The notes under the pieces: generated by a model
Database searches by the model: none
Told to the model about the DNA's origin: nothing
The model's input: the letters and a program-made list of their open reading frames with translations, nothing else
Shown here: one piece after another, positions 34,475 to 62,174 of the stretch
How the letters are laid out: each line of letters starts with the position of its first letter
Position numbering within the stretch: position 1 is the stretch's first letter
Origin: Schmidtea polychroa
Lineage: Eukaryota
Length of the DNA stretch: 64,000 nucleotides
Reading direction: 5' to 3'
Assembly: GCA_044892525.1 (NCBI GenBank)
Contig: CM097887.1
Location: 127,884,397-127,948,396 of the forward strand
Position numbers and translations under genes: made by a program

Positions 34475-34513
34475 TACGATATATTTCGACAGTTTTCCTG
34501 TGATCATCAGGTA
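34475..34513 (-). ncRNA. minimal hammerhead ribozyme (PLE copy B), stem II first pair mutated
   Basis: TAC-CTGATGA-T-CACAG(GAAAA)CTGTC-GAAA-TATA-TC-GTA; stem I is TAC/GTA and G10.1 is changed to C. Confidence 0.8.
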
Positions 34514-34672
34514 GGATAAAGTAATTATAGAAATTATAGATTTTCGAACAAATTTATAATTTAAAAAAATTACAATTTATTTAATAAATCATTTTTAATT
34601 TGTAGCAAAAAAGAAATTTTAAAATATTGAAAATTAAAATTTATTTAATAATTTAATAATTATTTACTTTAA

Positions 34673-34911
34673 CCCTCTCCGTATATTTCTCGAATATATT
34701 CGACATTAAAGCAAGATGTCACTTCCAGTTTCATAGGCCATTGCAAAAGTACATCGTTTTCACCGCGCATTATGAAAAAGAAAACAGAAAGATGTGTCCC
34801 TTTTCCAGCTTTGAATCCATCGGGATGAAGCTGAAGGCACAGTTTGTAACCGTTTTGTGGGAATAGAACGGGTCACTATAAATATCAGCATTATTTTTTA
34901 CACGGAGAGGG
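34673..34911. mobile_element. piggyBac MITE (239 bp) nested in the tail of PLE copy B
   Basis: TTAA|CCCTCTCCGT ... ACGGAGAGGG|TTAA. Confidence 0.9.
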
Positions 34912-36801
34912 TTAAAAACAACAATCCATATATAAAGTAGAAAAACACTATTTAAAATCATTTAAAACACAAGTATTCACTACATTTTGCATAGTAATTT
35001 TCGGATCCAACGACTTTTTCAATAACACTTCACAAATTACACGTTCCAATTATTGAAATTTTTAATAAAATTTTAAAATCAAACATACCTATTTTATGCT
35101 TATAATATTGGTCAATGCCTTTGGACTCGAGCTGAAATGTAGAGATGATGGGCAGTCTCTCCAATTTATGTGGTATTACATTCATTACAGGTAAATTGAT
35201 AAACGGGATAAGAACACAATTCGACCGGTGTTTTAAATTTAATGAAAGTTGACAAGAATATATGCAAATCTATAAATGAAAATATCACTTGTGATAAATA
35301 TAACTTCTGAGAAGTGCTTTACTCTAATTCTCAACCGTGACCTGCAATTCTAACATTACCTAACGATGAATATTTCACTAATAGTTATCTTGTATTACCG
35401 TGATTTGATTTTGTTATAGGGTCAAGTTTTATTTGAAATCTTGCGTTTTACATGCTGTACTATCCTTTAGTGAAAAATTACATTGTTGCCGATTTCTATC
35501 AATAATATAATCCTAAATTTTGTTGAAAGTTAATATTATCGATATTAAAATCATATATTTGTATTCTGTTTGCAGAATTTATGTTATTATAAAATTACTT
35601 TCTTAAATTAACAACTTAGTCAATTTAACTTTGTTTATTTAATCCACTTTTTATTTGTGATCTAAAAATTATAATTATACGTTGATCTTATTTTAACTAG
35701 ATTTATAATCCAACTTCGACTTTGGATCATGCCTTATGTTGAAAAATCAGGTATAATTTATTTATTATTCAACTTATGTAAAACTTAACTTATTTAGGTA
35801 ACATAGTAGATTCAGTACCATGGTCAATTAATTATTTCAAATCACTTATTTTTGGCTTTTTTACAATGTTGTCATTATTGTAAGAAATATTCAAATATTG
35901 AATATATTAACTAAATTTATTGTTTCAGCATCCAAACATTGATTCCTATAGATGTAAGACAATTATTTAATCCATATGTTTTGTAATTGTAACATTTCAG
36001 ATCTTTGGAATGGAATCAAATTCAAATAGACGGAATAATGGAAAGTTAGTTTATTTTCAATAGAGTATTTCCTTGTTTTGAAATTATAATTAATGTTAAA
36101 CTTTAAATACAAATTAAATTAACCATTTTTAATTTAATTAAAAATAATTTTATGTTAATATAATTATTAGATGTAGAAAATATACATTATTTAAGAGTGC
36201 GGCAAAAATCATTNNNNNNNNNNNNNNNNNNNNNNNNNNNNNNNNNNNNNNNNNNNNNNNNNNNNNNNNNNNNNNNNNNNNNNNNNNNNNNNNNNNNNNN
36301 NNNNNNNNNNNNNNNNNNNNNNNNNNNNNNNNNNNNNNNNNNNNNNNNNNNNNNNNNNNNNNNNNNNNNNNNNNNNNAATCTTTTTATTGTGCTAGTTTT
36401 CAACGAAAATGTATAAAGTGTTGCATATAACTGATATTTAGGTTTGAAATATTGCTGCTCTCCACTATTTAATGATGAGGTGTAAACTGGCGAGACAGTC
36501 TAACAAATAGTTCTCTTATTTAAATGATAAAATAGCAGTAAAAATATATTTGATCAGTACTGCTTGGAGCCCTATTGTAATTATTCAATCTTCTACAAGT
36601 AATGTAGTCAAACATAGTTTAAAACCAATTTGTAATTTATAAAGACATTTTGTATTATAGCAATGATAATAAATTAATGACAATTACTTGGTAGCTGTAT
36701 TTTAAAGTAAAAGTCACTTATTAACGTTGATTCTCATGAATATATGCACGTCATTTGCCATTGAATTTCTATTTAAGCATTGAGGCTGATGACCAATTTA
36801 A

Positions 36802-37047
36802 CCCTTTGACCACTATCGGGACATATATGTTCCAGTCAAATTAAAAAACAATATAGATGCCTTATTCTCTGTGCTATTACAACCAACGCTTGCCACACTC
36901 GTGTTTATAGTATTTTCGACTAGTTTCGTCTATACTCGTTAATATACGTTCTGCCGGCTAGCAAACTTAACATTTTATTTCATATATAGGTGATTTCTAT
37001 TGTTAAAGTTATAGAAATTTCATTTTTTTAAATTCCTCGTCAAAGGG
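36802..37047. mobile_element. piggyBac MITE (246 bp)
   Basis: TTAA|CCCTTTGAC ... GTCAAAGGG|TTAA. Confidence 0.88.
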
Positions 37048-37778
37048 TTAAGTGCGAATTTTTTTTACAATTTTGTCCCAAAAGTTGCCAAAAAATTTCT
37101 TTTGTTGTGATTTTATTCTTGCTTAGCAAATATTTCATTTTAGTTAGTTCTTTATTTTAGATTGAATTTTTATTTCTATTTTAATTTAAACTAAAAATAA
37201 TACAGGTAAACTCAGCCCAGATATTGAGCTCAAATATATGTTTATTACAACCTGAACTCGTTCTTTAGCAACAACGAGGACCCAAAACTGTATTACAAAC
37301 ACTATTGTCACATATGCAGTTAATAATTGTGTACAGTAGACTTTGTCACTGCATTGAAAATTTTATGTCTCTAAATAAAAAATATATTTGCTTTGCATAC
37401 AAAACTTTTCAAATTTGGACACATTCCATGATTTTAATGTTTTAAGGCTGTAAGTTTTATACAATATTTCAATATAATCAAACTGAAAGAGAAAGTGGTT
37501 AAGGTTAATCAATTAGTAAACATGTAATTAGTCTTTGTAAAATAATTACAGTTCTAATCCAAAAAAATATCATTTGTTTTAGTTATTTCCAGGCGTTGTA
37601 TTCTACCTGCATAAATTTATATTTGTTATTTAATAATGAATAAAATACCTAACCAAACTGAATTTCAATTTTCAAATATTCAGTGTTTCTTATTTTACAA
37701 TTCTCGGTTGGTTAATTTGAAAAATAATAAAAATAAGTTGTCAATTTTTAATAGATTATGATTTCATCGGATCTAATA

Positions 37779-37937
37779 CAGTAAAATCTTTTTTTACACA
37801 ATTTTGCAGAAAATCATGTAAATAATTAAAAAAAAATTCGGAATTCGTGTTAAATCAAAAATAACGTGTAAAAAAATTTAAAATTTCTTCTTGACGAACC
37901 GTGTTATTTCAAAATCGTGTAAAAAAAGATTTTACTG
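37779..37937. mobile_element. Tigger/pogo-type MITE (159 bp)
   Basis: TA|CAGTAAAATCTTTTTTTACAC ... GTGTAAAAAAAGATTTTACTG|TA; 21-bp perfect TIR. Confidence 0.92.
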
Positions 37938-37989
37938 TAATACCTAATTCTTATGGATCATAGATTTTTATATATTCATTTAGAGATTC

Positions 37990-38940
37990 TGCAGGAACTA
38001 CGTATCTCTTTTTTGCACTTTGTCGCATTTCTTTTCTATAACTGTCCATTATCTCATGGTAAGTAAGGGGGTAGTTCTAGTTTTGACAATTCCATTGTTT
38101 AATAAGAATGAATTTAAATCTACTGATTTGAATTGTGTGTCTCGATTGCTTTGGATTGACGATGACGTTTCGAATATACTGAAAATTAGAAACAGTTTAT
38201 CACTACTTGAGCAGATATGCTAGAGTTTGGGAATGCGAAGGGGATCTAGAATATTCGCCAATCACAACTAATATGAATTGTGTTTTGGTGGTATTGACAT
38301 GATGAAATCGATCGATAACCTTTTGGCGGGATGTGGCTTAAAGAAACGTGGCTCGACTTTACATACGTAGCACTTTTTAGTCATTTCATGAATTTGTTTT
38401 GTCTGCGGTAGCAAAACATTCTAGTTTTTTCTGGTTGACTAAGTCTGTCATGTAGTTTTTTTTAGATATTTAGTATTGAATATAGTAGTGCAGCGAGAAA
38501 GGGTGTCAGCTTTTGCGTTCAGTTAGTTTCTAATTTGAAATCAGCTAATTAGATTCTCTTTTTTGATTTTTGAGATATGGTTTTGTGAGAATAGAAATGA
38601 TACTACTTTTTGATCAGTGGTTATAGTAGATGTTGATGTCGATTGTAATAGGTGTCGCCATTTATAGGAACTTTCGATCATTGCTAAAGTTTCTAGCTCT
38701 TCAAATAAATTTTTTGTTTCGAAGTTTTCTAAAATTCTTGAATGAAAAGCGATTTGTGGCATTTGATGCTTTTGTTTGAAATTGTAAGGGGATATCAAAG
38801 ATGGAAGCTGTTAAGCATGCTTATAAAAAATACTTCAGATAATTAATTGTCACTGCGTAACTTTTGTATAGTGGGTTTTTATTATTGAGTTTGTTCGAGC
38901 ATTAGTGCTTGTTGAAATGTTATGTTGTGCGTGCTATATT
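37990..38940 (-). mobile_element. Ty3/Gypsy LTR-retrotransposon pol remnant (RNase H-integrase)
   Basis: Minus-strand motifs ESSYKWRHLL..TDQKVVSFLFSQNHISKIKKE (RNase H), CYVCKVEPRFFKPH..RLSIDF and FILVVIGEYSR (integrase core); frameshifted. Confidence 0.75.
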
Positions 38941-39127
38941 ATTTTTTTACCAGATAAATTCTTAAAGATTTCGTCAAATGGAATAATTTTTGACCGAAAT
39001 TCTAATTTTCACAATGGTATATATACTGAATTTTCTACTAACTAATTTAATAATTCTCTTTTATATGAATATTTATGAAACTTATTTATTTTATATCATA
39101 TATTATTGTTTATATTATGCTATAGAC

Positions 39128-39839
39128 CAACGGTGGGCAAATGCGGCTCTTAGAGCCGCATGCGGCTCTTCGTTGAGTAAACTGCGGCTCATTGATAATT
39201 GAATTCTTGATAATCGAATTCGATTTTATAAATCTACATTTGCATTTTTTGTGAACCCATTTATTTGTGATATTATTGAAGATGGATTTCCAATTTCTGA
39301 AGTAATACTTGTTAAAAAAGCGGTTGGGGAATTGGAGTTATTAGATATGAAAGAGGACCAGGCTTTGCAAATGCACCATAAATCTACTTCTATAGTTGAA
39401 TTTTGGAAACTCGTACCAGAGGCAAAATATCCACACTTAAAACAAGCTGCTTGCCGTCTAATTTCAATTTTTGGTACAACATATTGTTGTGAATCTTTGT
39501 ACTCCACAATGAAGTTCGTAAAGTCGAAATATCGTTCACAGTTGACCAATCAGCATCTTACAGAATTGCTGCGAACAGCTTTAACAAAGTATACACCAAA
39601 TTTCAAAGATTTGACCAAAAGTCTTCGTTAATTCAAGAAATTTTATTACTTTTTATTAATGGATTTTTATGTTTGTTACTTAATGTTTGAAATAATTATT
39701 TTGTTTTTTTTTAATAGCGTTTAAGTCTCTTTAATCAAATTAATGAAATAAAAAAAAATATGTACTTTACTATGGTGGCTCTGTAAAAAATAAATTTTCG
39801 GAAAATGGCTCTTATTGAACCCATGCGTGCCCACCCTTG
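39128..39839 (+). mobile_element. hAT internal-deletion derivative (SPIN/GTF2IRD2-like, Buster group), 712 bp
   Basis: TIRs CAACGGTGGGCAAA / TGCCCACCCTTG; exact TSD CTATAGAC. ORF 39251-39631 is the transposase C-terminal dimerisation domain (KYPHLKQAACRLISIFGTTYCCESLYSTMKFVKSKYRSQLT). Confidence 0.93.
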
Positions 39840-40009
39840 CTATAGACTGTAAAAATAGAAATGGAGATTTTGGAAAAGTTCGAATGATATAAAAATAAAA
39901 TACAATATAGAAAAATAAAGACATAATATACATTGCTAAAGTAATGATTATTGTCAGTTATTGTTTTATTAAGTAACACAGAAACCATAAAAAGTATCGT
40001 CACAATTAC

Positions 40010-40514
40010 TAGGGCATAGCCGACTTTTGATCCGGAAATTGGTTTCTGCAAGATTTTGACCAAACCGATTAACTGGTGTTGGCACCAACGCGAAAGACCA
40101 ATCAAAATAACAAAAAGAACGTGTTTTTAACAATTAAAATGAAACATAAAAATATTTGTAGTAATACAGTATAAAAATCAGCAGACATAAACATAAAACA
40201 ACGCATTCGTGGATATTCAACATTCATCAAACAACAATGTTAAACAACAAACTGAAAACTCGAAACAAGCTCGTAATTTTAATTTAACGATCGTCGATTA
40301 ATGCTGTCACATTTTTATAAAAAAAAGACAATGATTGCTTCCTCTTGGTTTTCTTCTCAATTTGATTTGGTCATTATTCTAGCTTCCAGGCTTCTACCTA
40401 GCGACCTTTAAACAAAGAAAACATCTACAATTAATATTAAAATACAAATTTATGTGACTATGTTTAACTGGATCTATCCGGAATCGGAGGAAAATATCAA
40501 TCGGCTATGCCCTA
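40010..40514. mobile_element. hAT MITE (505 bp), Ac-type TIR
   Basis: TAGGGCATAGCCGA / TCGGCTATGCCCTA perfect 14-bp TIR; exact TSD ACAATTAC (40002-40009, 40515-40522). Confidence 0.92.
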
Positions 40515-41850
40515 ACAATTACTGATTGATTCTGGACTGGGTTTGCACTTTGTATCTGTAATCGTCCTTTATTCTCTGGTCTCTGCGTATACATTCATTT
40601 TATCTTTATTTGGCCCTGTTTTATAGAATTTTTACAACACAAATGCGCCAATGAGTCTTCCCTTGTCATTCGACGCTTCTATCGTATTTTTTATATTTCT
40701 TTCTTTGTCTTTAAGTTTAGATGTACATTGTTTTAGTTCACCATTTATATAGCTCGAGACTTCATTGATCGTTTCCATTATTGAAAATGTTTTGACTATT
40801 TTAGCATTTCAAAGATTCTTTGTCTGATATATAAGCGCGACAGACGATACTGTTTCTATACGGATTTTCTTTACGATTGACTTCACTCTTGATACAAGTT
40901 CTTGAATATTTTCTGAATTATCCTATTTAAAGTTTCCTAGTTTTTGCCGAATAAGGATATTAAAAATCCTTTTGACGAGTTTGTCATCGACGATAGTGAA
41001 GACTTAGGTAATTTTGTTGCAATTGTCGATTAGTTGAAAAGTCGAAGGATCGTATGGGAGAGAGAGAATTTCTAGTTCATCTTCTTTCCTCATATTGGAT
41101 TTCCTCAAAAAAAGTTATCGTCATGCGTTTCCAGGAGGCATATAGCTCGTTTGGAAAAGGTTTTTTGTAAATTTTGGTATCCATTTCATTAAATATTAAA
41201 ATTAATCTAATAAATTTCATAACATTAATATATGTTGATTACAGACATTATAATATGTTGGTTTTTCTGGTACAGTTAGGCGTGATTCATGTTGAAATTA
41301 CAAACGACTTTTTAATTTATGTTAAAATTTTACTAATTTATAATTTTTTTTTAAATCTAGAGGACCGAAAAAGTTTGGTGGATATAGTTCTGGATCGGGT
41401 ATATTAATATAGTTTCATTAATTAGTTAATCTCGTTTTCCAGCGCCATATTGTCCTCCAGGTGCCGGTGGATGAGGTTAATTATGAAACATTTCTCTGCA
41501 TTCTGCATTGATTGAGATGTTTCATTGTTATATAATTACTTCAATTCGACTCTGCTTTATTTAGTTATGATATGATGCCGGAAACCTGAAATTTTCAGAC
41601 TGGCATTATTGATGCTGCTAAATATATTTATTTCGTTAACAATTTATTTCACTGTAAATTATTCTCTTCAGAATGTGATTGAGACTGGGTGTTGACGTTG
41701 AATGCTGGATAAAATATATATATTCCTTTGGTATGAAGATTTGGAAAATTTTTTTCTTTTGAAATGTTTTGAAATGTAGCATATAAATAAATAATGTCAT
41801 AATTGTAAATTAGAATCTTCTTTATTGATATACGTTTAAAGTTACTATAA

Positions 41851-42405
41851 GCCGCTAGGGTTAGAATAGTCGAATATGGAAGCCAAAAAAATCGTCGCCT
41901 AAGAAAGAAAGCTTTAATTGGTTAAAATCGTCGCCAATGTTGAAACCCGAAAAAATCGTCGAAAATGTAGTACAAAAAAATAGCCGACAATATGAAATCC
42001 TAAAAAATAGTTTTTCCTATGTGTTCCCGATGGATTTTTAAATTGAAACTTTGCAGAGAAGTAATCCGTCACTTTTTTACTTAGATTCCGTTGAAAAATT
42101 TACCAAAAAATATATAGTAGTAGACTATCTGACAGGAAGTTTTGTCCCCCTAGGGGTACAGCGTCTAAGGGTATACGTACATTCAACAACCGCACACCCC
42201 CACCCCCCCGACAGTACGGAAAATTTATAATAACTAACTTTTATTAGTTGACTTTTTCCACAAAATAATTTGAATTAAATTGTCGACGATTTTTTTGGGA
42301 TTTGTTGAATGTCGGTTATTTTTTTGGGTTTGCAGTCGGCTAATTTTTCACGATCTGTCGACTTTTTTTTGACTTCCATATTCGACTAATCTGACTTTTA
42401 CCGGC
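41851..42405. mobile_element. PIF/Harbinger-type MITE (555 bp)
   Basis: ~40-bp imperfect TIR (GCCG..TAGTCGAATATGGAAG / CTTCCATATTCGACTA..CGGC); TAA on both sides; internal AAAAAATCGTCG-like repeats in both orientations. Confidence 0.7.
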
Positions 42406-42490
42406 TAAATTTTGAATGACAAGTGAATTAGATTTATTTCCATGAAGTCTAAATGAAAATATGAATGAGAGAATTGCAAGTGGTGGCTGC

Positions 42491-42830
42491 TAGTGCTTCT
42501 GATACAGGTATTTCGGTACTGAAAAATTCGATACCGGTATTGATTTTTTAATGTGAATAAAAAGTAAAAATTGACAGTACTTCAATAAACCTTTTTATTT
42601 GATATCAAAATTACAGGCTTTTTTCAATTTGCGCCCCTTTTCCTTTGTAAAATATGCCCGTAAAAAAAGGGTATTCAGAGTGTTATCAACAAGAGATGAT
42701 CGTAATTTGGTGACAATGTTGCCACTTGATGAAAATCCACGTTCCGATTCAACACTTGTTGGCTTTATAGTTCTCAAGTATTCGTAAGAGTTTCGAAAAT
42801 TGCAATCTCCTTGCGGATTGATTTTGAGAA
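42491..42830 (-). mobile_element. hAT (Ac/ZBED1-like) 3' end with dimerisation-domain remnant
   Basis: TIR-like TAGTGCTTCTGATAC with ATACCGGTAT subterminal repeats; MRTIKPTSVESERGFSSSGNIVTKLRSSL. Confidence 0.7.
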
Positions 42831-44476
42831 ATCTTTCGAAAGGTTCAATCTTGCCTTGTTAAATTTAATAATAAGTAGGTGTCAATAACAAAATGTCATA
42901 TATAATAACACTATATGAATATATTTTATAACATTAATAAAAACATCTGTCTTAATAAGCTTTAAAAATTAATATAAAAATTATATAATATTATTGCTAT
43001 ATGAATATATTTTAACATAAATGAAAAACATCTGTAAAATATATTAAATATTATTCTGTGCGTATAGGCCGGAAATAAAATATTTTATTTATTAAGTTTT
43101 AAAAACAGTATATATACCCCAATAATATTTAGAACAATCGCCCAAAAATCAAGACACTTATTCGAAGGTTAATCCTGAGAATATCATAAAACCAGAATCA
43201 GACAGAAACAATTCACATTTTGACCTAATTTACTAAGACAGCACGCACTATATAACATAGAACAAAAACACATACTTTACAAGCATCCAGAAAGAAACGT
43301 TTGATTAAAAGGAATCTTCAACTGTTAATTTATTTATCAAGAAAAATCAGCAAATTGTTAATTTTATAATTGCTAAATTCTATTTATAATAAATATTTAT
43401 ATTGAGACTTGTGTTTTATCTATATAAGAAACAGCAAAGTTTAGTCTCTCAAATATTGAGACCTCAACAGATAAATCAATCTCTTCACCACATTTCTCTT
43501 ATACTTAAATTCACAAAAGCTTTGGGACGAAGTATAGAGACCAGAATCAGTTTTGCGCCCCTTTTCCTTTGTAAAATATGCCCGTAAAAAAAGGGTATTC
43601 AGAGTGTTATCAACAAGAGATGATCGTAATTTGGTGACAATGTTGCCACTTGATGAAAATCCACGTTCCGATTCAACACTTGTTGGCTTTATAGTTCTCA
43701 AGTATTCGTAAGAGTTTCGAAAATTGCAATCTCCTTGCGGATTGATTTTGAGAAATCTTTCGAAAGGTTCAATCTTGCCTTGTTAAATTTAATAATAAGT
43801 AGGTGTCAATAACAAAATGTCATATATAATAACACTATATGAATATATTTTATAACATTAATAAAAACATCTGTCTTAATAAGCTTTAAAAATTAATATA
43901 CAAATTATATAATATTATTGCTATATGAATATATTTTAACATAAATGAAAAACATCTGTAAAATATATTAAATATTATTCTGTGCGTATAGGCCGGAAAT
44001 AAAATATTTTATTTATTAAGTTTTAAAAACAGTATATATACCCCAATAATATTTAGAACAATCGCCCAAAAATCAAGACACTTATTCGAAGGTTAATCCT
44101 GAGAATATCATAAAACCAGAATCAGACAGAAACAATTCACATTTTGACCTAATTTACTAAGACAGCACGCACTATATAACATAGAACAAAAACACATACT
44201 TTACAAGCATCCAGAAAGAAACGTTTGATTAAAAGGAATCTTCAACTGTTAATTTATTTATCAAGAAAAATCAGCAAATTGTTAATTTTATAATTGCTAA
44301 ATTCTATTTATAATAAATATTTATATTGAGACTTGTGTTTTATCTATATAAGAAACAGCAAAGTTTAGTCTCTCAAATATTGAGACCTCAACAGATAAAT
44401 CAATCTCTTCACCACATTTCTCTTATACTTAAATTCACAAAAGCTTTGGGACGAAGTATAGAGACCAGAATCAGTT
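42629..44476. repeat. 924-bp near-perfect tandem duplication (42629-43552 / 43553-44476)
   Basis: Both copies begin TTGCGCCCCTTTTCC and end GAGACCAGAATCAGTT; by eye only one difference (taaaaattat vs tacaaattat). Confidence 0.95.
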
Positions 44477-45946
44477 GGGTTTCTATAAATCTGTGTCTCA
44501 TAGTTTTTCTCAATATACCGAGGAAACAGTCAGGCAAATCGATTAGGTTGAGGCGTTGGTCATACAATGTCACCGTATGTAGTCGATATGATTTCGGCCT
44601 GATCATGTTTATATGTTCAAGAATCAAATCGAGGTACTGCGGAAACAGCTTGACGAATCACACGTGGATTTTTTGGGACTAATGATGATTATTCTAGAGC
44701 AAGCCTAAGATTTCAAGCTTTTGAGCCTCAATTACCATTCAGCCCAGAACCCATGTAAATGAAGAGAGAACTGTTTCCGGTAACTCTAATCGTAGTTCCA
44801 GTGACTGCTACCTTACTAATTGTTCTTCCAGTGGCAGGAAAAAAGCCCTTTCGACAATCATTGCCGAAAGAAATCGCATTAGTTAATCGCATTGGCTAAT
44901 AGGATAAATGCGGAGTTTTTTCAATTTTATGGATGTTCCGCAATGACGATTTGATTTTATAAGAAATATAATTCTTGTTATTTAATTATTATTATTATGA
45001 TTCGAAGATCAGTGATCACAAGAGAGAAGCGAGAGTTAGATTTCGGTTATCAGTCAATGCAAAACTTGAACAAGCTAGTTAAACTATCCATGGGTGAGAA
45101 AAATGAGAGTTAGAGTGTTACACCTTGTAACTCGAGACGCACCAGGACATCATCATCTCTAAAATAGGGCTCACTTTTTTCTGCCAGCCCTTAATAACGT
45201 ACAGATCGAACGTTACTTGCAACAGAGGGATGTAGGGTTAAATTTCTGTGGTAATGAGGAGAATTTATGAACAACGGGATTCACTACAACAATGACAGTC
45301 AGCAAATTTCAATCTCACTAACAATAAAATTATAGCCGATAACCCCATAAAGAGAAATATCAGACTACAACGGGGGGATTTTTAACGAACTTAGCGCTAT
45401 TGCGTACATGTTTTTCTACTTAATAATACTAATCGAAAATTAACTTTTCAAATCACAGCATAAATATAACAATAATTAATTAAAATTTTATGTAACTTAT
45501 TATTTCTACAGTTCATTAGTGCAACAATTTTTAGAAAAAACCTTAAAATTGTTATAATTCAAAACCACTTCTTTGAATCAACGTTCTTTCTAAGTTGTAA
45601 TGAGACAAACAAGTTTCAGACTACTTATTATTAGGCTTAATATCTTTTTATACTTTGTTTTAATAATGATTAAATTAATTTAACACAATTAATTTTCACA
45701 TAATTAATTTTTACAATTATTATATGTAAGCATACATTTTTTAATATTGATATTTAATTGTAGTTCGAGTAACTGTATAGTAGTTAGTGTATGTCACCTA
45801 AGTAATTCAAACACTGGTTTGTTAAAGCAAATGAAATGTCTCCACAATCATTTATTTAAAATTCTAATATATTAATAATTTTGAATTATTTTATATTACC
45901 ATAATATTTTAATTAAATCTAATTTTGATGAAATTATAAATTTTAG

Positions 45947-46659
45947 ATGGGTGATCATGTTCATTCCAAAACTTGTGGTTGTGACCATTCCAATCCCAAT
46001 GAAGATAGTCAAAGTTTATATTCATATATTAACAAAAGTGGTATAATCTGTCTTAATGAGTCTGTTCCAGAAAGTGGACAAAAAGTTTTCAAACCACATG
46101 ATGTATAATTTGATTTCATTTGTTTAATGATTATTATTTAAAGGAAAGGAAAACTAATTTAAATTATGTTCAAAGTGATAGTGACGAAGAACTTCTTTTC
46201 ATTATTCCTTTTACAAGCAACGTTAAAGTAACTGGATTAATTATATCCGGAAATGACGATAATCAGCATCCTAAATCGGTATCCCTTTACAAAGACCGTT
46301 ATTCAATAAATTTTGATTCTGTAGAAGTAGTGTTTATTTATTCCTTTTTATTTATTCCTTTTTAATTATTATTTTTTTTCAACACACAGAATCCTGAACA
46401 GACTATAGAATTAGTTCCAGATTCAAATGGTGACATAGTATACGACCTAAAACCAACGAAGTTTTCATCATTAAGCCATCTAAGTATTTACGTGCGTAGC
46501 AATTTTGGGGGTGATGTTACTCAAATTAATTATATCGGATTGAAAGGCAAATTTATGACACCATTTCGAAAATTAAACACAGTGAATGCAGTTTATGAAT
46601 TAAAGCCAACAGCGACTGACAACAAAGTCCAGTCATTTGTGAATCAATTCATTGACTAG
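45947..46659 (+). CDS. PITHD1: PITH domain-containing protein 1, 202 aa; exons 45947-46102, 46144-46326, 46390-46659
   Basis: Spliced translation MGDHVHSKTCGCDH...LNESVPESGQKVFKPHD|ERK..VQSDSDEELLFIIPFTSNVKVTGLII..HPKSVSLY..INFDSVE|NPEQTIEL..KFSSLSHLSIYVRSNFGGDVTQINYIGLKG..YELKP..ID*. The His/Cys N-terminus, SDxDEELL and YIGLxG are typical of PITHD1. Introns are 41 and 63 nt, GT-AG, phase 0. The second donor could lie 6 nt earlier. Confidence 0.93.
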
Positions 46660-47196: not shown

Positions 47197-47392
47197 CAGG
47201 GTCGGATTATCTCTTTTGGGGCCCCTGCTTGTCATTTTTACTTTCTCGTGCAAAATTTTAATATTTTATATTCGGAGAATTGTTTCTTTATTTGGAAATG
47301 CAATTTCCATATTTTTTCTTTAATCATACTATATATATAACAATTGCTCACTCGGACAATTTTTTTTTGGGGACCTAACCTATCCTGCACTG
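47197..47392. mobile_element. old hAT MITE (~196 bp)
   Basis: Degenerate TIRs CAGGGTCGGATT / ATCCTGCACTG; 8-bp flanks TGCGCGTT / TGTACGTT (6/8 match). Confidence 0.5.
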
Positions 47393-47599: not shown

Positions 47600-48900
47600 T
47601 GACTATTATTGTCAACCAAATAAAAGTTAACAAATTCCATTTATATTCAAAATGCTTCTTTGATCTGCATATTCATAGCCTAGTGTCCAATGCAATTGCG
47701 GAGTCGGGTAGGTATAAATCTAAATGACGACCTCGCCCCTATAGCTACCACGAAAAAGCATATTTTAGTGCACTCGAATGATATCCATCACTAGGTGACG
47801 TTGGTAGAGTATCAAGTAGTTTAAAGTTTAAATCAAAATGAGTTGTGTTTTCCATGACTGTTGTGCCTAATACTATATGGATTCGTAAAAATCTATGACT
47901 CCAGGCTTCATTTAAAGTTTTCCATTTTTTATGTTTTGAACTGAAAATATTATAAAATTTTTAATTGGTCCGAAAAAAATGTAATTGGCTCAATACAAGC
48001 TATGGCTGAGTGTACGTCACAAAAACTGAGCGCATGACAAAGAGAAAATGCTGCAAAAGTGTTTGTTTCAAAATTAAACTTTGAACACCTTTATAAGTAT
48101 CACTAAAATGCGCCCCGTTATCATACTCCTGGCCACGGCAATCGCGAATTGGGATTCTTAGTTGATCTATGGTACTATGGTAAATTTTTCAACACCCGTT
48201 TTTTGGTTGCAATTGACAAAATTAAAAAACCGTTTCTTGATTAAAACTTTTCTACTCCATCAAGCAGCAAATAACTTAACATGAAAAACCTGTGTTCCAC
48301 ACGATACGAACCAGGAGTTACGTCTACCATTATTGTATAATATTTTGCTTTTTCTCTTTCTTCAATGATTGCTTTTGTTACATTATCTGCACAGCATTGT
48401 ATAAATTCGCTTTAGCTTTCGGTTGATAAGTAATTTACTTGTAGTCGTTGGTATGCTTGTTGGGATTTTTTACATTATCCAAATGTTTTTTTAATACCTT
48501 GTCATAATGACTTATTAATTCTAAAATTCCTAAGAAGTTACCGTTTCTGAAATCACCTAGCAGAAATATTTTACCTTTAAATGCTAAACTTTTTTCTCCT
48601 ACATATAAACTCATGTCTAAAATTCTATGTATTATTTTTGTCCATTCACGTTCTTGATCCTTAATGCAATTTTGATGTAATGAATTTACAGTTGTTGCCT
48701 TAGGAAACCTTTTCATTTTTGTTGAGTTGAATTCCAGATTTCGAAGCTTAATTCTTAATTTGAGACAAGTAGAAGTTTTATTTAAAAGTTTACAAGGAAC
48801 GCAAAATAACTTGCGTTCCAAACCAGTCAATCGCGACTTACATGTTCACCATTTTGTAAAGTTATTTTAAGTAAATTAATTGGAAATTTATATTTATTAA
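47600..48900 (-). mobile_element. hAT transposase pseudogene of the ZMYM1/PRKRIR (DUF4371-containing) type
   Basis: LFCVPCKL (TTF-type zinc finger), GDFRNGNFLGILELISHYDKVLKKHL, AKYYTIMVDVTP and LLDTLPTSPS (dimerisation domain); stops and frameshifts. Confidence 0.75.
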
Positions 48901-51731: not shown

Positions 51732-53430
51732 CAGGGGTTCTTATCCTTTTCATAAACAATTCAAAATATATTTAAGTAACACACACAGTTACACAAAATT
51801 TAATGTGAAATTTGTTGCTGCTTTTTTCTAATAATTTCTTGGTAACGAGGCTCAATTTTTGAAAGCGCAATGCGCAAGTCGCATTTTGACGATTTCTATA
51901 TTTAGTTTTAATATTTACTAGAGCTGAAAAATCCTGCTTCGCAGAGTAGGTATCTCCAACGTTATCTTTGCAAGATTTGAGAATAATTCTAGTTGCGTAT
52001 ACCAACAATTTGTAAGAGTTGACTTTTCAAAAAGCATAGAATCCTGTGCTCTACTCTGAAGTTTAATGAGATCATTTGAGTAAATCTTCATTATCAATGT
52101 CATTAATATTGAAAAGAAATGGATTTTGTTCTCATTTCCGATCTATACCAATTTTTCCCGTCGAAAAATAACCATCAAATGATTTGCTTAATATTTGGAA
52201 ATGAGTTTTAATTTCTGAACAGATAATAGATTTTTCTTCTTGTTAAATTATTTCATCAACCATAGGAAAATTTGTGAGATTATTGTTTTCAACTAGATTT
52301 ATCCAAACTTAGTTTTTTTTGTAAATGCTAATATTTTTTCGTTTGCTGTGATAATGTTGCTGAAAGTTCCTTGTATAGATAAATTCAATTCATTCAAGTG
52401 TTCAAAAATGCCAGACAAATATGCCAATCCTAGTACATTATTTAGTATATAAGACTCTAAAGCAGAAGAGGCCAACCCGCGTCTCGCAGCTTCATATGAT
52501 GAATTATGTTATTATAATGTTTTTTTTAAGTACAGGTATTAGGTTAAGTCAAGTTATCTGAAAAAGATTTAAACTTGCAACACCGCTACGGGTCACTGCA
52601 TGTCAACTCTTGTCAATGCACAACATTTTCCGTTATTGAAAGAAAGAAATATTAAGAATTTTTTATAAATTTGTTGACGAAATAAAAAAACTTATGGTAG
52701 CATTTAATACTCGTTTTTCAGAACTGGTAGATTATAAAAAGCATTTCAGATGTTCAGCTCTCCATTTGGTGTTGATATTTCCACCGTTTCAGAAACCTTA
52801 CAAATGGAATTAACTGGCCTGCAATGCAATACTGAATTGAAAAATATGTACCCCACGATTCCAAAAATTGAATTTTATAGTAAATGCATAACAGTAAAAT
52901 AAATCCCTAACATCAGACATTTTGCCCAAAAAGTTGTTAGTGCCTTTGTATCTACATATGTTTGTGAAACTTTTTTTCTAAAATGAAAAACAATAAAAAT
53001 TTAAATAGAGCGTCAATAACCAACGTAAATCTGGAAAATCAGTTAAGATGTGCAACGTCGAATATTGAAATAGATATAGAAAAATTAAGTAAGTGAAAAG
53101 ACACACAAATATCACACTGAAATAACTGCATGTATTGATGTATTTTATGTTTACAACCAAACAAATATATTTTATTGTTCGTTCATTACATGTTTTCTTT
53201 TTATACATAGATTTTCCCCTCAAAATTATCATTGAAAATTATGGTTAAGTACAAATATATTTATAAAGCCACCAAAAATGATAAGAATAAAATTTTCCAA
53301 TTATTCTTATTTATGTGCGGCCCTTGAGAAATTTTAGGCCGTCAATGCGGGCCTTGGTACAATTTGGGTTGGCCAGCCCGGCTCTAAAGTGTACATTCTA
53401 ATTTTTAATGAATGGGTATTTAAAGGTTAA
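51732..53430 (-). mobile_element. Charlie/Buster (ZBED5/SCAND3-like) hAT remnant, interrupted by a nested hAT
   Basis: TIR CAGGGGTTC at 51732; motifs LAYLSGIFEHLNELNLSIQG...EKILAF and QDFSALVNIKTKYRNR; the reading continues across the nested element. Confidence 0.75.
52463..53381 (+). mobile_element. hAT internal-deletion derivative (GTF2IRD2/SPIN-like), 919 bp, nested
   Basis: TIRs CAGAAGAGGCCAAC / GTTGGCCAGCCCGG; exact TSD CTCTAAAG (52455-52462, 53382-53389); LQMELTGLQCN..FAQKVVSAFVSTYVCETFFSKMK. Confidence 0.88.
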
Positions 53431-54005
53431 CAAAAGTACAATAAAATTGAGTGAAAAACTCCCGAATATTGATGACTTTTAGGATTTCATTTTCATTTGG
53501 AATTCACTAAATTTTATTCCTTAATTTCATGCTCAACTCGCAGACTTTTAGATAAAATTACATAAGGCTTAGATTGTAATTTATATTTTTACTGTATTTT
53601 ATAATCATTAGTTATTTCCAAATTTAGTCATGCAATTAAAATGAGAACAAAATTCTGAAAAATAAATTGTTTCCAGAAATAATTGGCATATCCGAAACTC
53701 AGTTGAATATATACCCGAGTTTATCTAAAACATAAAATATTTAAAAATAATATTCATCATTATTTTAAATTGTGAACTCGTTAGCTAATTTTCACAAATG
53801 AATAACTACAGATATTTTGGATTCATAAATTGTTCCCAGTTAGACCTGTTTAATTATTTGCATCAGTTTTCTCTTGACCGCTACTAATAAATAGAATTTA
53901 GATTTTAATTTTTTTATTTTTAAATCGAAAAATAAAAATTTCTGTATATTTGAAGTAAATGTTTTATTATTTATATTATTGAATTAATTTAATTAATTAA
54001 AACAA

Positions 54006-54525
54006 TCTAATATATAAAGATGAAAGTTTGTTTGTTTGTTACCCATAGAATTCCCCACCGTTGCGGACCTAGGGTGCTGAAATTTTGCATGTGACTCTCA
54101 TTTAACTCGGGACAGGTCATAGCTATGTTTAAACCCCAGGTGATCACCCTTAGGGTACCCTAACCCTACTCAGGGTCACCTTGATTGACTCAGTAGATAC
54201 CCCAAGGAGGTAAATTTGGCAACAATGTTACAAATAAAAGTTGTAGATCATGTTAGGTTTATAAAATAGGATTAGTATACAACTGTTTCAACTCTTTAAA
54301 AGGAAACACAAAACTAATGGGAGGAAGAGTTGTGGTATTAACTGGAGATTTTGAACAAATCAAGCTTTATCATAAGTGATATATAAATTACATATACTTT
54401 TTTTTAATTAAATTTTTATGTATTTTTTAAATTATTATTTTTAAATGAATAAATTGAAATAAATTTCTTTATTTTGAATCTGTTTACTAATTTTTAAATC
54501 GTGCAACGCCGGGTACCCCAGCTAG
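54006..54525 (+). mobile_element. non-autonomous Helitron (520 bp)
   Basis: A|TCTAATATATAAAG 5' end followed by (GTTT)n; 3' cgtgcaacgccggg hairpin and CTAG|T. Confidence 0.9.
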
Positions 54526-56173
54526 TTTATGATAATTGAAAATTTACATTAATTATAATTAATAAAATAGACAACCTGTAGAGTTCAATTAACGGCTAAA
54601 ATTACAGAATTATTTTTAAATTCGAAATGATTAGATTAATGAAGAATTATGAAAATGGAAGTATTTTTTCAAAAGATAGAAATTCCCCCAAAATTGAAAA
54701 AAATGAAAGAAGCGAATCAAAAAAGTAAAGAAATTGCTTGAAATCAAAATAGCGAAAACATTAAATAAATTATTTCCTATGTTTGTTGATTTGTTAACTT
54801 CCTTCTGAGTATTTTGCAAATTGAGTTTACGTTCCAATAAACTTGATTTAACATGGGCAGACAGTTCTGATGGATAAATTGATGAATGAAAATTTCCTCC
54901 TAGACGAACACGAATCAGTATCTTCAATAAAGCACCACCTCATACTCGAATATACTTTAAGTATTGTAAATTCAAAAAGTTTCATTTTGAAATAAGATTC
55001 ATCAGTGCACGAAATAGTATAATGATCCACAAAATTTTAATTCTTTAAAATTTCGTACAGATTAAAACAAAATTATGAAAATATTTTTACTATAAAATAA
55101 CAATTCAACCAAAAATTTTTCTTTTTCAAAAAAAATAATATAAAAGGAAAATTATAATATAGATTTTTGTTAATTCTTACTAATTATAGAAGAACATTAT
55201 AGAATATATATTTTATAAATGAAGATATATAATTGAATCAAATATAAATTATTTAACTACTTCTCAAACCAACTGCCAGTGAAACCCAAAGACTTCTCCC
55301 AGGGGGCAGGTAGGGTCTCAAATGCACCATGATAAAAAATTGTAGAAATTATTTGTAGAAACTTGATTCTTCTATTTTCTTTCCGTTAATCATATCTTCT
55401 GACTTTAATTTCTTCTTTAATCCTACTGTCAAAATGTTCGTCCCTACCTGCGGCAAATTGCCGATTGCTGGGTTCCTTCATATAGTTTAAATAATGACAT
55501 TGATTGATGGCGTTTTAACTAATTCATCTCTCCTTGACAATCTTTGGCTCGCGGCCTTTTTCATTTTCTCATCGTTGAAATAAATAATTAATTGTTCCAC
55601 CGTGTGTCTCCCTTGTGATAATCTTTTTCCATTTTCCCCATTACTCATGCTGTCATAATTATGGTTTTCCAACTTCGATTTTGTCTACTTCTCTTTCTGT
55701 TTACTTTGGTTGGGTTTCCCTTAATTTATTTATTCATTTATTAATGGTTTTCTGTTATTGTACGTTTTCTTGGATTTCGACCCTTTCTGAACATAATCTG
55801 ATAAATCCGTTCTTACCATGATCTTCCCAATCATCTCATTTACACCTGACCCGTTTTTAAAATTTTAGTTCGATGAATTCTTGATTTTGAATTTTCAATA
55901 TTACGTTTTTAATTATTTGGAAATTTTAAATTTAAAAACCCCAACAGCTTTGTAAAATCATCAACAAAAGCAAACGAAGAAAGGCATATAGTTGGAAATA
56001 GTTACAACGTTACTTATGTCTCGTATTAGATTGAAACGGTTAATTNNNNNNNNNNNNNNNNNNNNNNNNNNNNNNNNNNNNNNNNNNNNNNNNNNNNNNN
56101 NNNNNNNNNNNNNNNNNNNNNNNNNNNNNNNNNNNNNNNNNNNNNNNNNNNNNNNNNNNNNNNNNNNNNNNNN

Positions 56174-57104
56174 GTTAATGAAGAACGGTTATTCAAAATT
56201 CTTTTTAGTAATTATGGTGAAAGAGACTGTTGAAAAATTTATTAAAAATCCTAAGGATCCATGTTTGAGAAAATCTATGTGTGATCTTGTTGAGGTGTGT
56301 GTGTCTGATGAGTTGAATAAATTAAATAGTGTGAGCAAGGATGATGAGCCTAAATTTGTGTTAGTATTGCCGTACTCAGAAGGTTTTAAGGATTATAAAG
56401 TGAAGATAAGAAAGCAGTTAGGGAATTTAAACTATATGATAGTGTCAACTTCATGGAAAGTACGCAATATGTTTATTAATAAGTCAAAAACTGCGGTCGA
56501 ATTGTGTTCCGATCTCGTTTATCAGTTTACATGTAATGGGTGTAATGCCACATACATTGGAAAGACTTCCCGTCATCTCTGTATTCGAGCTCGAGAACAT
56601 TGTAGACCGAAGGCTTTGACCCATATTGGTGAGCACAATAAGGGCTGTAAGATTAAAATAGGTATGTCTGATTTTAAAATTTTATTAAAAAATTTCGATA
56701 ATTATTGGGAACGTGTGATTTGTGATGCGTTGTTGATAAAATCATTGAATCCGAAAATTAATATGCAGAATGCAGTAAATACTTGTGTTTTGAGTGTTTT
56801 TAAATAGGTTTTTTTATATTGTATGTATTGATTGTTGTATTAAATTAAATAATTAATAAAAATTTTTTAAATTATTAAATTAAATTTTAAATGCTAAAAT
56901 TTTAAAGAAATAATATATTAATTTAAGTATAATTTTTTTAAAAATAATTATTGTTTTTATAAAATAAAAATTTTTTTTATATAATTAATAAATTTGTTTA
57001 AAATCCATAATTTAATGAGTTATTATATCCCACCTGATGATGACAGGAAAACTGTCGAAATATATCGTGAAAAGAATGTTTGATTGGCGTTATCTTATAA
57101 TTAA
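56174..57104 (+). mobile_element. Penelope-like element copy C: end of RT thumb, linker, GIY-YIG and tail
   Basis: ORF to 56807 reads LMKNGYSKFF...LPYSEG...[21 protein letters not shown]...; highly similar to copy A; bounded by N-gaps on both sides. Confidence 0.93.
57031..57069 (+). ncRNA. minimal type I hammerhead ribozyme (PLE copy C)
   Basis: CAC-CTGATGA-T-GACAG(GAAAA)CTGTC-GAAA-TATA-TC-GTG; stem III palindrome ATATAT; predicted cleavage after C57066. Confidence 0.88.
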
Positions 57105-58499
57105 ANNNNNNNNNNNNNNNNNNNNNNNNNNNNNNNNNNNNNNNNNNNNNNNNNNNNNNNNNNNNNNNNNNNNNNNNNNNNNNNNNNNNNNNNNNNNNNN
57201 NNNNNNNNNNNNNNNNNNNNNNNNNNNNNNNNNNNNNNNNNNNNNNNNNNNNNNNNNNNNNNNNNNNNNNNNNGAATTCTAATATTTTAATTTATTCACT
57301 AATTTAAATATTTTTTCTGCAATATATACTTGTTACAAAAGTATTGGAGGTGTCTTTTATAATCATAGCGTCTTAATCAAAAAATTTAAGTCATAAAATT
57401 ATTTATAAAAAGTTGTTGATTGTTAATAAACAAAAAAGAAATCATTACTTGACTTCCTTTGTAAATGAGACGGTTAAAATAACGAAATATTGATTAATTA
57501 ATGAAATAAATATAAATTATATTTAAAATAATAGTCTTATACATTTATAAAGTAAAACAAAAATTACAATTACATTTGAATGAAAATATTATATTTTCCC
57601 ACATGATTTTTCCTTATGCGACAACAACATCTTTCCACTCAAAAAATTAGTTTCTGCCAATTATTTACTGAAAATTTTTTTATTTATTTGTCACGTTGTT
57701 ATCTTAATTTTAAAGTAAAAATGAATTTGCAGGGGAACGGCACACTATTCGAATGTCGAACTATCATCTGAAACCGAAGAATATTTATCTGATAACTTCC
57801 CACATGATTTTCGTGGTTCTGGACTTGTTAGCAAGATTCTCATTTGTGCGTTTAAAAAAAAACACCTTTTTTTGGAAAACGGTCATCTATATGATATTGT
57901 AAATGTCGTAAAGTCTTCGTTACCGATTGTGCCAGATATTATAAAATATCCGATAAAGAATTTAGCTGACAAAAATTTTTTTAATAAAATTTAAAATTGA
58001 TCAACATATAATTTTAATATACGAGCATTTGTTGTCTTTACAAGACTCAAATGTAAATAAAATAAAGGACTTTATTATTAGAGAAATATTTAATCGCAAG
58101 GAAATTAAGGAAACTAACACTCCTTAACCATATTTAGGAAATAAAATTAGCAAAGAATAAAAAAGTAATCTTTCAGCCGTAATATGAAAATAACTGTAAA
58201 TAAAATTTTTAATAATAATTACAGATCGCGTTAATAATTTTAACCATCAAGATTTCATTGTTAGAAATCATGATAATGTTTTTAAATTTGGCTTAAAATC
58301 TAAAACAGTTTTTTTACTTCGAACAATAGTAGATATTAGCCACAGAGCTACGGGTATTATTCGAATCCATAACAGAAATTATATTAACACGTTTTTTCTT
58401 AAAATACAAATATTATTAAAACAAATTATAACGTTAATTTGTTTGAGCAGTTTCTAAAAAATTTCAACATACAATAAAAAATGCACATCATCATACCAT

Positions 58500-59400
58500 T
58501 ATTTTAATACAAAATGCAAAACGCCTCACAGTAGATGAGAAGGTTGTTTTTGAATTAATAAGAGAAGATAATACATCTCCTGGAATTCAATGCAATTCAA
58601 TATAACGATATTGCAATTTTTCATCCAGAGAATAAATTGCTGACTCTTCTTTACAGAAAACCATTACGGAAAATACTTTTCCGGACACTTGGGAATCTTT
58701 TAAGACTCTGATGATTCCTAAACCTGACAAGGGATATAAATATACTTTGATTTCTTCTTGGTGTCCAATTGTTTTGTTATCTGTGGTCTATATGATATTT
58801 GCGTCGATTTTAGCTAGACGCCTTATATTTTGGGTACAACAAAACAATCTACTTCATATCTGTCGAAAAAGGGTTCTGTGTACAATGGTTTTGTGGAACA
58901 CAATTCAATACTTTCTTCTTGCCTGGAACACTCAAAATATAGTAAATATACACCTATTACTATTGGATTTCTTGACATCATAGGTGGTTTTGATAGTGTA
59001 CCCCATTATTACTTGTGGAAGATTTTACGACGTAATGGAGTTGGTGAAAAATTCACAACCACTTTAAAACTATTATACACTGATACCGGCTCCTTCTATA
59101 TTTGTGGTCCGATGGTAACTCCGAACATTTCAATAAGGCAAGGTGTACAATAATTATTTTGTTTCAAATTTCAATTAACCCCGTTCTTCAAGCTGTTATT
59201 CTTTCTAATGTTGAACCTTTCAAAATTGCCGAATATCCCAGCCATGTTCTGTACATGCTGATGATATCGATTTTATCGCTAATAATACTCATGATTTGCA
59301 AAATATCATAAAAGTTGCTTTTGATACAGCTTGTAAAATTGGGTTTGAAAACTGCATTGAAAAAAGTGCTTATATTCAGTAGCCAAATATTGACCATATT
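58500..59400 (+). mobile_element. non-LTR retrotransposon RT remnant, R2/NeSL-like (RLE clade)
   Basis: LMIPKPDK..SWCPIVLLSVVYMIFASILARRL, GFVEHNSIL..GFLDIIGGFDSVPH and IRQGVQ..LFQISINPVL; frameshifted. Confidence 0.75.
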
Positions 59401-60946
59401 ATTGAAGTGTCAATTGACAAAAAATACTGAATTGTATAATTTGAATAAAAGAAGTGACAATACAATTTCTTTTTAAATTTTTTTTAAAGTCATTTTTGTT
59501 CTAGCGGTAGCGAATTGATCTACCAATCTGCAATTTTTGAGGAATGCCTTGGAACCACTTGAATGAGCGAAGCCGGAGAAATGAAGCCCGGTCAAAATCA
59601 GTTATGTCTTGTAATAATGTGTATTTGGTTCCCACCTAATGTATTAAATGTGTATAAATTTTTTTATTAAAATTCCATTTTGGAATATTGAAACATGTAT
59701 GTTATATAGGGTGATAAAAAATGTAGAAAAATCTATGTGGAGTATGATATACAAAGGTTGGGAAACAGTGTTAGATAGTGGAAAACCCCTTAGATTTTTA
59801 TGGACATTATATATTATTAATAAAACATTTAACTGTTACTGTTTCTTTCTTAAATATTTATTCAGTTTAGAAATAAAAATGAATAAAATCACCCAGAGAT
59901 TGATATAGCCTTGATAAATGCATTCGAAGTATACTGCCAATGATGGCAGAAAAATTTTATTTTTGTTCTTCAGAGTACACAAGACAAATAAGACACAGTT
60001 TGATCATATAAAATACCGAATTGATATAAAACATCAGTATAATTCGGCATTAATATAAAAATCCCGGAGTTTGTTTCAAAGTTTTGTGAATGTATTGTTG
60101 AGAATATCTGAATAACAAAAAATAAAATAACGCTCTAAAATTAATAAAAATGAGCGGAAAAAATGGCCACAATAAAAGATGTCATGCTCTCAAATTCGAG
60201 AAAAAATGAATGAAGCAAAGAAATTGGGAAACGAAATAGATATAGCAAAAAATCAATGAAATCAAATAACGAAACGTGAGGTCGTTTTTAATTAAAAAAT
60301 ACAAATGGAAATGAAGAAAACAAAAACAAAATCAATTTGGGAATGGAAATTCCTTATCTCAAGAGTTGCACGAGATAATGAATGAACTACCAGAACAGTT
60401 GGAGGAATAAAATGAAGGAAAACGAAATAAAATAATTTATTTTGACAATGTTATAGATCATGCGGGAATTGGGAATGTCCAAAGGAATATACTGAAAAAA
60501 GGAAAATTAATTGTGTCAAGAAATGGCGAGATTTAAAAGGAGAACACTAATTGCAAAAGGGGGACAAAAAATTTTTTACAGAAGCAGCATTAAAAAGTAG
60601 GTTCTAGAAAACGAATTATTGAAATTTCGAAATGATAAGAGGTGAAATTTGACCTGTGTTAATAAAGAATAAAACAAAACAGCCAAAGAGAAATAGAAAA
60701 AGAAATATAATCTTTGAAACAATAAGCCAGTGATAATCGAACTCACAACCAGAAATTATTAAAGTTCTAAGTCAAGATAGGAAAGCAACCGGATCTTTCG
60801 TACGAGGTGTCAGCCATTAGCAGCAATCAAGCAGTCGTGTGATCAAAGTGTTCCCAAAAGGTCCTATTCCTCCCAAGGAGTTGTAATAAGCACCCAAATA
60901 TGTTTGAGTAGTATTGAGTAACTGGTGTCATTGCAATCGTTATAAC

Positions 60947-61222
60947 CAGGCCCGGCGTGAGGCGGGTACGATGCGTGATTTTCACGCAGGCGCCACGACG
61001 GAAAAATACAAAAGGCGCAAAATTTTACAGAAATTTGTTATTTTCATAACAATTTCCATTCTTTTGTTTAATAACTAGTCCAATTTGAACAATATTGTTC
61101 CCTCTGTGAAAAATATTTTTGTTTTGAAAAATAGTTTATCGTTTTTTTTACTCTTATTATGGAATGCGAAGGTGGTAATATGCAATTTTCACACATCATC
61201 TGAAACTCTAGCGCCGGTGCTG
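60947..61222. mobile_element. hAT MITE (276 bp)
   Basis: TIRs CAGGCCCGGCG / CGCCGGTGCTG; exact palindromic TSD GTTATAAC (60939-60946, 61223-61230). Confidence 0.9.
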
Positions 61223-62109
61223 GTTATAACCATTGTGATATTCAGTCAAGTTGTATTGATTGAAATCCGTTATTTTTGTTGAATAAAAGACGCTCGAATT
61301 AAGTTAGTAATTATCGATTTTATAAACCACTAACAACAAACTCCAACCGTATGGAAATATATTTTCAAAAGTAACGGTTTTCATAAGATAACTTTGTTTT
61401 TTTAGATTAAACCTAATTTTAAATCTACTAATTTAAATGACTTTTTTCCTTCCTATTTTTTGTCTACTATATTTTGTCTTGCACCTTTGTATGTTCATAT
61501 AAATTCAAAAATTTCGCCGTAACATATTGCTGTCAACAGGCACTATTTTTCAAACCATTACCCACAGAAACATAAAACTTTTACCATCTTGATTAACACC
61601 TTATCTCGAATTATATCAGAAACCTTTGCGACTTATTTGGAGTGCAAAATTCTTTAGTATTCAGGACAAGCAAGATCACTACTTGTTTCAATAATTCGAG
61701 TATGGCGAAATAAACAAAAATTAACGAAGAAACAAATAATTATAGATTACGGATTCCGGAACTTTGTATCAGACTGCCTAGTAACATGATAAATATAACC
61801 TCCTAGCCTTCAAAAGTTGGGTTTTCCGAATTTATAATTCTCATCAAGAAAGATTGGATCTATATGTTGATGGACCTATACAAATAAACTTGAAATATTG
61901 CTTTTATTTTACAAATTCTAAAATTTATGGAGGGAGAGAATTAATTAATCATATAATTTATATCTGAAATGATTTCCACAAGTCAAGAACGATACAACTA
62001 TAATTGACTCATGACTTTTACCTTCAAACCGCAGTTGCTGAATACGCGGATATAGCAAGCCTGTCATAATCAAATTAATTAATATTAATCGCCATTCGTA
62101 CATCTTTTT

Positions 62110-62152
62110 CACTATATTTCGATTTCGATAGCATCACTATCATCATCAGGTT
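62110..62152 (-). ncRNA. degenerate hammerhead of a second PLE-type family (left arm of an inverted pair)
   Basis: Minus strand AAC-CTGATGA-T-GATAG(TGATG)CTATC-GAAA-TCGAAATATA-GTG-aaaaagatgtacgaatggcg; the downstream tail resembles the PLE tails. Confidence 0.6.

Positions 62153-62170: not shown

Positions 62171-62174
<4 letters not shown>

Follow-up and report, generated by a model that had tools for sequence, protein, structure and literature searches.

Metazoan Penelope-like elements (PLEs) carry minimal type-I hammerhead ribozymes, among them a variant with a palindromic helix III (Cervera and De la Pena 2014, PMC4209133), and this is among the closest known systems to the motifs analyzed here. 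Published assays report cleavage that is low or depends on protein (PMC4209133, PMC11167929), and cleavage of PLE hammerheads as dimers was described by Lunse et al. (via the review PMC6765202). In this context, we studied a 64-kb stretch of the Schmidtea polychroa genome (contig CM097887.1; G000:C3:127,884,397-127,948,396), referred to as the window, which holds five copies of a 39-nucleotide (nt) motif: at 6854, 57034 and 62391 on the forward strand, the last decayed, and at 34510 and 62149 on the reverse strand. A preliminary description of the window had argued from three structure-preserving stem changes that the fold, including a palindrome enabling dimers, was selected in the active lineages of at least two subfamilies. 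Searching the whole AT-rich genome of 781 Mb, we find that the motifs very probably represent hammerhead folds of the minimal type-I class, located at the 3' ends (pseudo-long terminal repeats, pseudo-LTRs) of endonuclease-positive (EN+) PLEs, and that purifying selection likely preserved stem pairing as the masters of at least six families diverged. Stem covariation, the palindromic helix III and the overlap with an open reading frame (ORF) are all already published, and paired stem changes in PLE hammerheads have been described in other animals. Compared with PMC4209133, the present work concerns another genome and other families and a 5-base-pair helix II, and places the changes on a tree and sets them against neutral decay. 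By title and abstract, searches for planarian Penelope hammerheads and for start-codon overlap returned no paper on these families, which the supplements of PMC4209133 may nevertheless list.

The motif does not arise by chance, since its core together with stem II has 3,274 matches in the genome versus 0 in a reversed control; a second hammerhead pattern gave 573 matches versus 1 in the control. The copies show the core CUGANGA ... GAAA with a NUH cleavage site, in which H17 is C, A or U. Helix II contains G10.1-C11.1 and one extra preceding base in all families, the pair being G·U in family E and broken in the window copy at 34510, and helix III is a short palindrome in 3,699 of 3,841 matches. 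An Rfam scan of the window returned no hammerhead match at E<=1, which says little about membership because the family has been defined in print by a descriptor and not by an Rfam model. An intact unit is found at locus L331, where two tandem ribozymes 2,771 nt apart flank an ORF of 856 amino acids, with an inverted copy in addition. This ORF encodes a reverse transcriptase (RT) domain (RVT_1, E=1.7e-9) followed by an endonuclease, and over its C-terminal part it shares 99% identity with the window ORF that carries a Pfam GIY-YIG domain (E=1.3e-4, at the curated cut-off). The locus thus has the single ORF with RT and C-terminal GIY-YIG of EN+ PLEs, and pseudo-LTRs from partial tandems, an inverted truncated neighbour and a tail are present as well. 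Close neighbouring pairs are oriented head-to-head in 30 of 33 cases, the targets are microsatellites and the tails are about 20 or 32 codons long, with no notable difference from the EN+ insertion units with an inverted 5'-truncated copy and a 30-40 nt tail described in PMC8557442. Among the fetched loci, mostly picked via the ribozyme, the core lies downstream of 134 of 146 endonuclease C-termini. Three of the window hammerheads likewise sit after the end of a GIY-YIG ORF; the A3 element is 98% identical to the intact unit over 687 nt, and the A1 element covers residues 632-856 of it (tblastn).

The fetched loci yielded 309 distinct copies, which were assigned to families by their flanks, and 30 further contexts were added. 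They form at least six families: A (with A1, A2, A3 and a U·G class), B, C, E and F, plus a poorly sampled D. Within the A lineage, A1 has stem I CAC/GTG, A3 combines the same stem I with helix III ATTAAT, and A2 has TAC/GTA. The endonuclease regions of B, C, E and F are 30-63% identical to that of A3. Family D (stem I TGC) comprises six decayed copies, and a DNA search for it returned only another repeat; because its 3' side has no stable majority, it was excluded from the pairing test. Family C includes a sub-lineage with U4C in the catalytic core (CCGAAGA) that was amplified despite this non-canonical core (L251, L256, L258, L259). In the A lineage all four combinations of upstream variant and helix III variant exist (8, 36, 2 and 24 copies), which may point to recombination between the subfamilies A1 and A3.

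Selection on the fold is better supported by these genome-wide data than by the three changes in the window. When one natural copy of each of the five deep families A1, B, C, E and F is compared, identity is 100% at nine core positions, 74.5% at paired sites and 36.2% at free sites (N7, the insert, loop 2 and H17); the 60-nt AT-rich spacer upstream is near random (46.3% versus 40.0% shuffled). With A2 and A3 added, parsimony places 19 substitutions on the 22 paired sites, and 3 of 77 cells are unpaired, namely the third pair of stem I in B, E and F. Placing substitutions at random on this tree left 15.1-20.9 cells unpaired, with 0 of 20,000 runs as low in each of four settings. The seven copies include five distinct Watson-Crick doubles (P<=0.0013), a result that holds when only the 11 varying sites may change. 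The underlying quick tree has support values of 96 for E+F, 96 for A, 100 for B and 99 for C. In a broader set of 63 copies drawn by class (51 of them distinct; F not represented), pairing holds in 93.2% of cells versus 88.5% after shuffling. These comparisons suggest that the fold was selected between families, in the active lineages of several subfamilies. Folding in search of a conserved long helix I gave a different structure per family and none in common; a bulged register rescuing pair 3 in B, E and F was rejected as post hoc and failing in A2.

Inserted copies, on the other hand, decay neutrally. Of 97 copies selected by core and stem II alone, 83 belong to A1, A3 or B, and 70 remained after removal of indels and truncations; in these, deviations from the family majority affect 28 of 770 sites in stems I and III and 87 of 2,427 flank sites, both 3.6% (P=0.91), the stem figure being slightly lowered by the definition of A3 through its helix III. 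Since stems within a family decay like their flanks, selection would have acted only in the active lineages. Among 375 pair cells, 20 were broken by a single change, 3 were wobbles, 1 was a compensated double and 1 another double. Uncompensated variants are thus at least as common as compensated ones among individual copies, a pattern that the preliminary description had taken to count against selection; as a product of neutral decay after insertion, it says nothing about the masters. As witnesses for compensated stem changes, the five window copies are poor. In the copy at 34510, stem II reads CACAG/CTGTC, with a C·C mismatch at the closing pair G10.1-C11.1, and the start codon AUG is also destroyed. 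In the copy at 62149, a net insertion of 4 nt disrupts the helix III palindrome and the reading frame, and the third stem I position, the same one that had been cited as compensated, is A·G. None of these defects appeared in the preliminary description. An unpaired third position is the norm in family B, with AAC in 51 and GTG in 55 of 70 copies. The decayed copy at 62391, likewise missing from that description, is the head-to-head partner of the one at 62149, with an (AT)n tract (about 62174-62238) between the two.

Much of the ribozyme is also coding sequence. A9, an inserted U and G10.1 spell the AUG at which the 856-residue frame starts, 27 nt ahead of the predicted cut in families A-C. 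The ribozyme doubles as the first ten codons, and the sequence 3' of the core represents the first 30-odd codons of the element ORF. The downstream tail, previously thought to drift freely, is therefore the start of the ORF; near-random sequence is confined to the upstream spacer. The lizard element PAc (Poseidon, Anolis) is alike in that its ORF starts at stem II, with C3 and G8 ahead of the AUG and the tail as ORF start, and its cut falls 26 nt after the start codon, here 27 counting from the A (PMC11167929). PAc was assayed, showing protein-assisted cleavage that is dispensable for insertion in vitro (PMC11167929), whereas cleavage of the present folds is a prediction. Unlike in PAc, families E and F have A in place of U at the inserted position and hence no ribozyme AUG; their first in-frame AUG lies 3' of the cut site, and they keep the fold nonetheless. 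In E, which is young, and in F the frame is open through the core from an in-frame CUG (L345-L374, several places on G000:C1), and in F a pyrimidine-rich AG directly before stem I resembles a 3' splice site by eye. The idea that the PLE protein motif 'GxKF/Y' is the translated ribozyme was rejected, as Naiads have the motif internally without a ribozyme.

This overlap raises the question of whether most of the conservation reflects protein-coding constraint on the first codons rather than RNA folding. In codons 11-31, A1 and B share 14 of 21 residues and differ synonymously at six codons (Trp16 was required by the filter), and the 3' partners in the stems fall on synonymous third positions: the stem I change reads as Val GTG/GTA with a non-coding partner, and the stem II change as Leu CTG/CTA. 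H17 as C, A or U could simply be Ile ATH, and helix III could pass through an AA intermediate only by way of a stop codon. However, the stem II partner changes Thr to Ile and the palindrome change turns Tyr into Leu, both tolerated where pairing is preserved. The 5' strand of stem I and the pair C3-G8 lie ahead of the AUG and track their partners. Codons 3-4, in loop 2, freely change residue, and the third base of codon 6 (G12) is invariant although all three four-fold third positions in codons 11-31 differ. Families E and F, finally, lack the ribozyme AUG, a start at the in-frame CUG being possible. We thus consider it very unlikely that coding explains most of the conservation, while it accounts for some of it in families A-C, where the ribozyme also encodes protein.

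The three changes from which selection had first been argued are three single historical events. The letters cited were exact, namely CAC/GTG at 6851 and 57031 and TAC/GTA at 34513-34475 for stem I, GACAG/CTGTC versus GATAG/CTATC (62141-62127) with loops GAAAA and TGATG for stem II, and ATTAAT versus ATATAT for helix III. In stem I, both the C-G and the U-A state of pair 3 are real, and family C also carries U-A, but B, E and F have lost the pair and no single double change took place. There are 154 genome matches within one mismatch of the TAC..GTA 39-mer, 14 of them exact, and among 86 other matches listed 36 have U·G and 4 C·A. In the 163 of 199 A-lineage copies with readable diagnostics, the share of old-type flanks is 0.91 for U-A (n=21), 0.49 for U·G (n=16) and 0.01 for C-G (n=119). 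Because the U·G class was amplified and has intermediate flanks, the change consists of two single steps through a wobble. The stem II change at pair 3 is confirmed as a true double, family-wide in B (64 and 65 of 70 copies) and repeated in E; since B and E are not sisters in the quick tree, it arose twice. Among 100 core and stem II matches listed, this pair is intact in 96, C·A in 3 and A·G in 1. Both palindromes of helix III are real as well, but they go back to one event on a very short branch. Over the 3,841 matches the centre is AT in 2,698, TA in 1,001 and other in 48 + 94 (19 of these from one tandem array), with no GC or CG and no amplified TT or AA class. All 100 TA-centred matches listed have an A-type stem II, and A3 and A1 show no fixed difference over 284 upstream columns (25 and 20 copies), so that the swap was one event and likely one step. 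On its own such a swap is weak evidence, because adjacent double changes made at random yield a palindrome in 3 of 9 cases. The case for selection on a dimer-forming palindrome in particular, which hangs on this one swap with a chance of one in three, is therefore weak, whereas selection of the fold in the active lineages of several subfamilies remains likely on the genome-wide data. The preliminary description had sensed this correctly but argued it loosely.

The same data speak to the possibility that a single event of template switching or slippage at hairpins and palindromes produces both sides of a paired change, which would then need little selection. Such a mechanism has been described for RNA stems (10.1101/2021.04.15.439925), and the missing fixed differences between A3 and A1 and the absence of an amplified TT or AA intermediate fit a one-step double. 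As a general explanation it is highly improbable, leaving the amplified U·G intermediate unexplained as well as the invariant single-stranded core beside freely varying N7, loop 2 and H17; compensated doubles are moreover nearly absent among inserted copies. It likely holds for the palindrome swap only.

Returning to selection on the ribozyme fold, the most likely reason would be that it cleaves the element RNA at H17, either as a dimer or helped by the element's protein. A second copy or the protein would be needed because helix III is a 6-nt palindrome with a predicted duplex energy near zero. Cleavage could trim tandem precursors and, in A-C, would part the AUG from its ORF. Masters probably spread transitions by way of G·U wobbles at the third stem I pair of lineage A, complete swaps of stem I pair 2, stem II pair 4 and, on two occasions, stem II pair 3, and one swap of the palindrome centre that was likely a single step. 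We give very little credence to the further idea that the palindrome is a partner code, by which A1, A2, B, C, E and F, sharing ATATAT, could pair in trans, transcripts of dead copies cut new element RNA and remove its start codon as a brake on copy number, and A3 escaped with ATTAAT. The ATTAAT duplex is predicted at -0.2 kcal/mol with itself and +2.2 kcal/mol with ATATAT, and A3 rose to 1,001 copies and has an intact ORF; speaking against the idea, family E is also young yet has ATATAT, and helix III is very weak. Selection of the fold as a protein-binding or replication signal, or its persistence as a passenger, is extremely unlikely even though metazoan minimal hammerheads are weakly active in vitro (PMC4209133), cleavage needs protein and is dispensable for insertion (PMC11167929), Naiads thrive without a ribozyme (PMC8557442) and G·U at 10.1-11.1 and the U4C sub-lineage are tolerated, for invariance coincides exactly with the catalytic core, the majority of each family has C, U or A at H17, and such a role would alter the reason for structural selection rather than its existence.

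Several points weigh against a selected, cleaving ribozyme. The search patterns fixed some stem letters and ATWWAT, so that families were partly pre-selected and broken-fold families could be missed; a structure-free search for another second base in stem II, covering this one class, gave background only (137 versus 102 in the control). In the broader set, pairs changed on both sides number 5, which 26 of 500 shuffles matched, in a control that ignores relatedness. The root of the quick tree is weak (31). Families B, E and F carry a mismatch at the third stem I pair, the 10.1-11.1 pair of E is G·U, and U4C occurs in 6 of 34 copies assigned to C. Helix III homodimers are predicted to be barely stable (-0.8 and -0.2 kcal/mol), and the prevailing head-to-head neighbours cannot share a transcript, a possibility confined to tandem units such as L331. 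Insertion of the lizard element in vitro was not reduced when its ribozyme was mutated (PMC11167929).

No new system is revealed by these results. To a known class they add a well-resolved natural series: a single genome holds six families in which a wobble intermediate was amplified, a stem II swap recurred, dead copies decay neutrally and the ribozyme doubles as codons. Selection on Penelope hammerheads, whatever their role, is thereby supported, and the natural ATATAT and ATTAAT variants provide material for a direct test of dimer specificity. Contigs of four presumed-RNA runs showed no start, end or intron and give no evidence on expression either way.

Table 1. Hammerheads, element parts and neighbouring features in the window.
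Feature	Position	Strand	Details
Intact minimal hammerhead, A3	6851..6889	+	Stem I CAC/GTG, core 6854-6860, AUG 6860-6862, stem II 6862-6876, helix III ATTAAT 6880-6885, C17 6886
Intact minimal hammerhead, A1	57031..57069	+	CAC/GTG, helix III ATATAT (57060-57065), C17 57066
Hammerhead, A2	34475..34513	-	TAC/GTA; G10.1 to C at 34502
Hammerhead, family B	62110..62152	-	Stem I AAC/GTG, stem II GATAG/CTATC (62141-62127), A17
Decayed hammerhead, family B	62388..62426	+	C3 to U, mismatches in stems I and II
PLE, 5'-truncated, A3	6237..6920	+	GIY-YIG end (ORF 6235-6660), AT-rich spacer, hammerhead, tail
PLE 3' part, A1	56174..57105	+	Between N runs; 88% to intact unit, 977 columns
Older decayed PLE fragment, A2	34403..35240	-	74-80% to intact unit
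Further A-lineage 3' end	63726..63995	+	Exits the window ahead of its ribozyme
Short PLE RT fragments	43470-43584, 44394-44511		
Exons, presumably of a LIM-homeobox-like gene	14810-17886	-	Label from translations
Exons, presumably of a PITH-domain-like gene	46366-46659	+	Label from translations
Remnants resembling DNA-transposon transposase and non-LTR RT	18962-19862, 39203-39631, 43441-43782, 48435-48845, 58636-59153		By eye

Elsewhere in the genome, hammerhead-like motifs occur in further settings. A 19-copy tandem array with a 2.1-kb unit combines a decayed hammerhead with a same-strand open frame of 214 amino acids (G000:C1:50,681,622-50,719,858; L206-L220, L340). At least 27 duplicated decayed hammerheads lie next to an ORF with a RING-finger-like cysteine pattern, as judged by eye (G000:C1:232.97-234.57 Mb; L333, L334). 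Other small repeated hammerhead-like motifs have about ten copies or fewer each (e.g. L062, L065, L069), one of them ending in the palindrome AACGTT, and L304 holds one more canonical-looking hammerhead.

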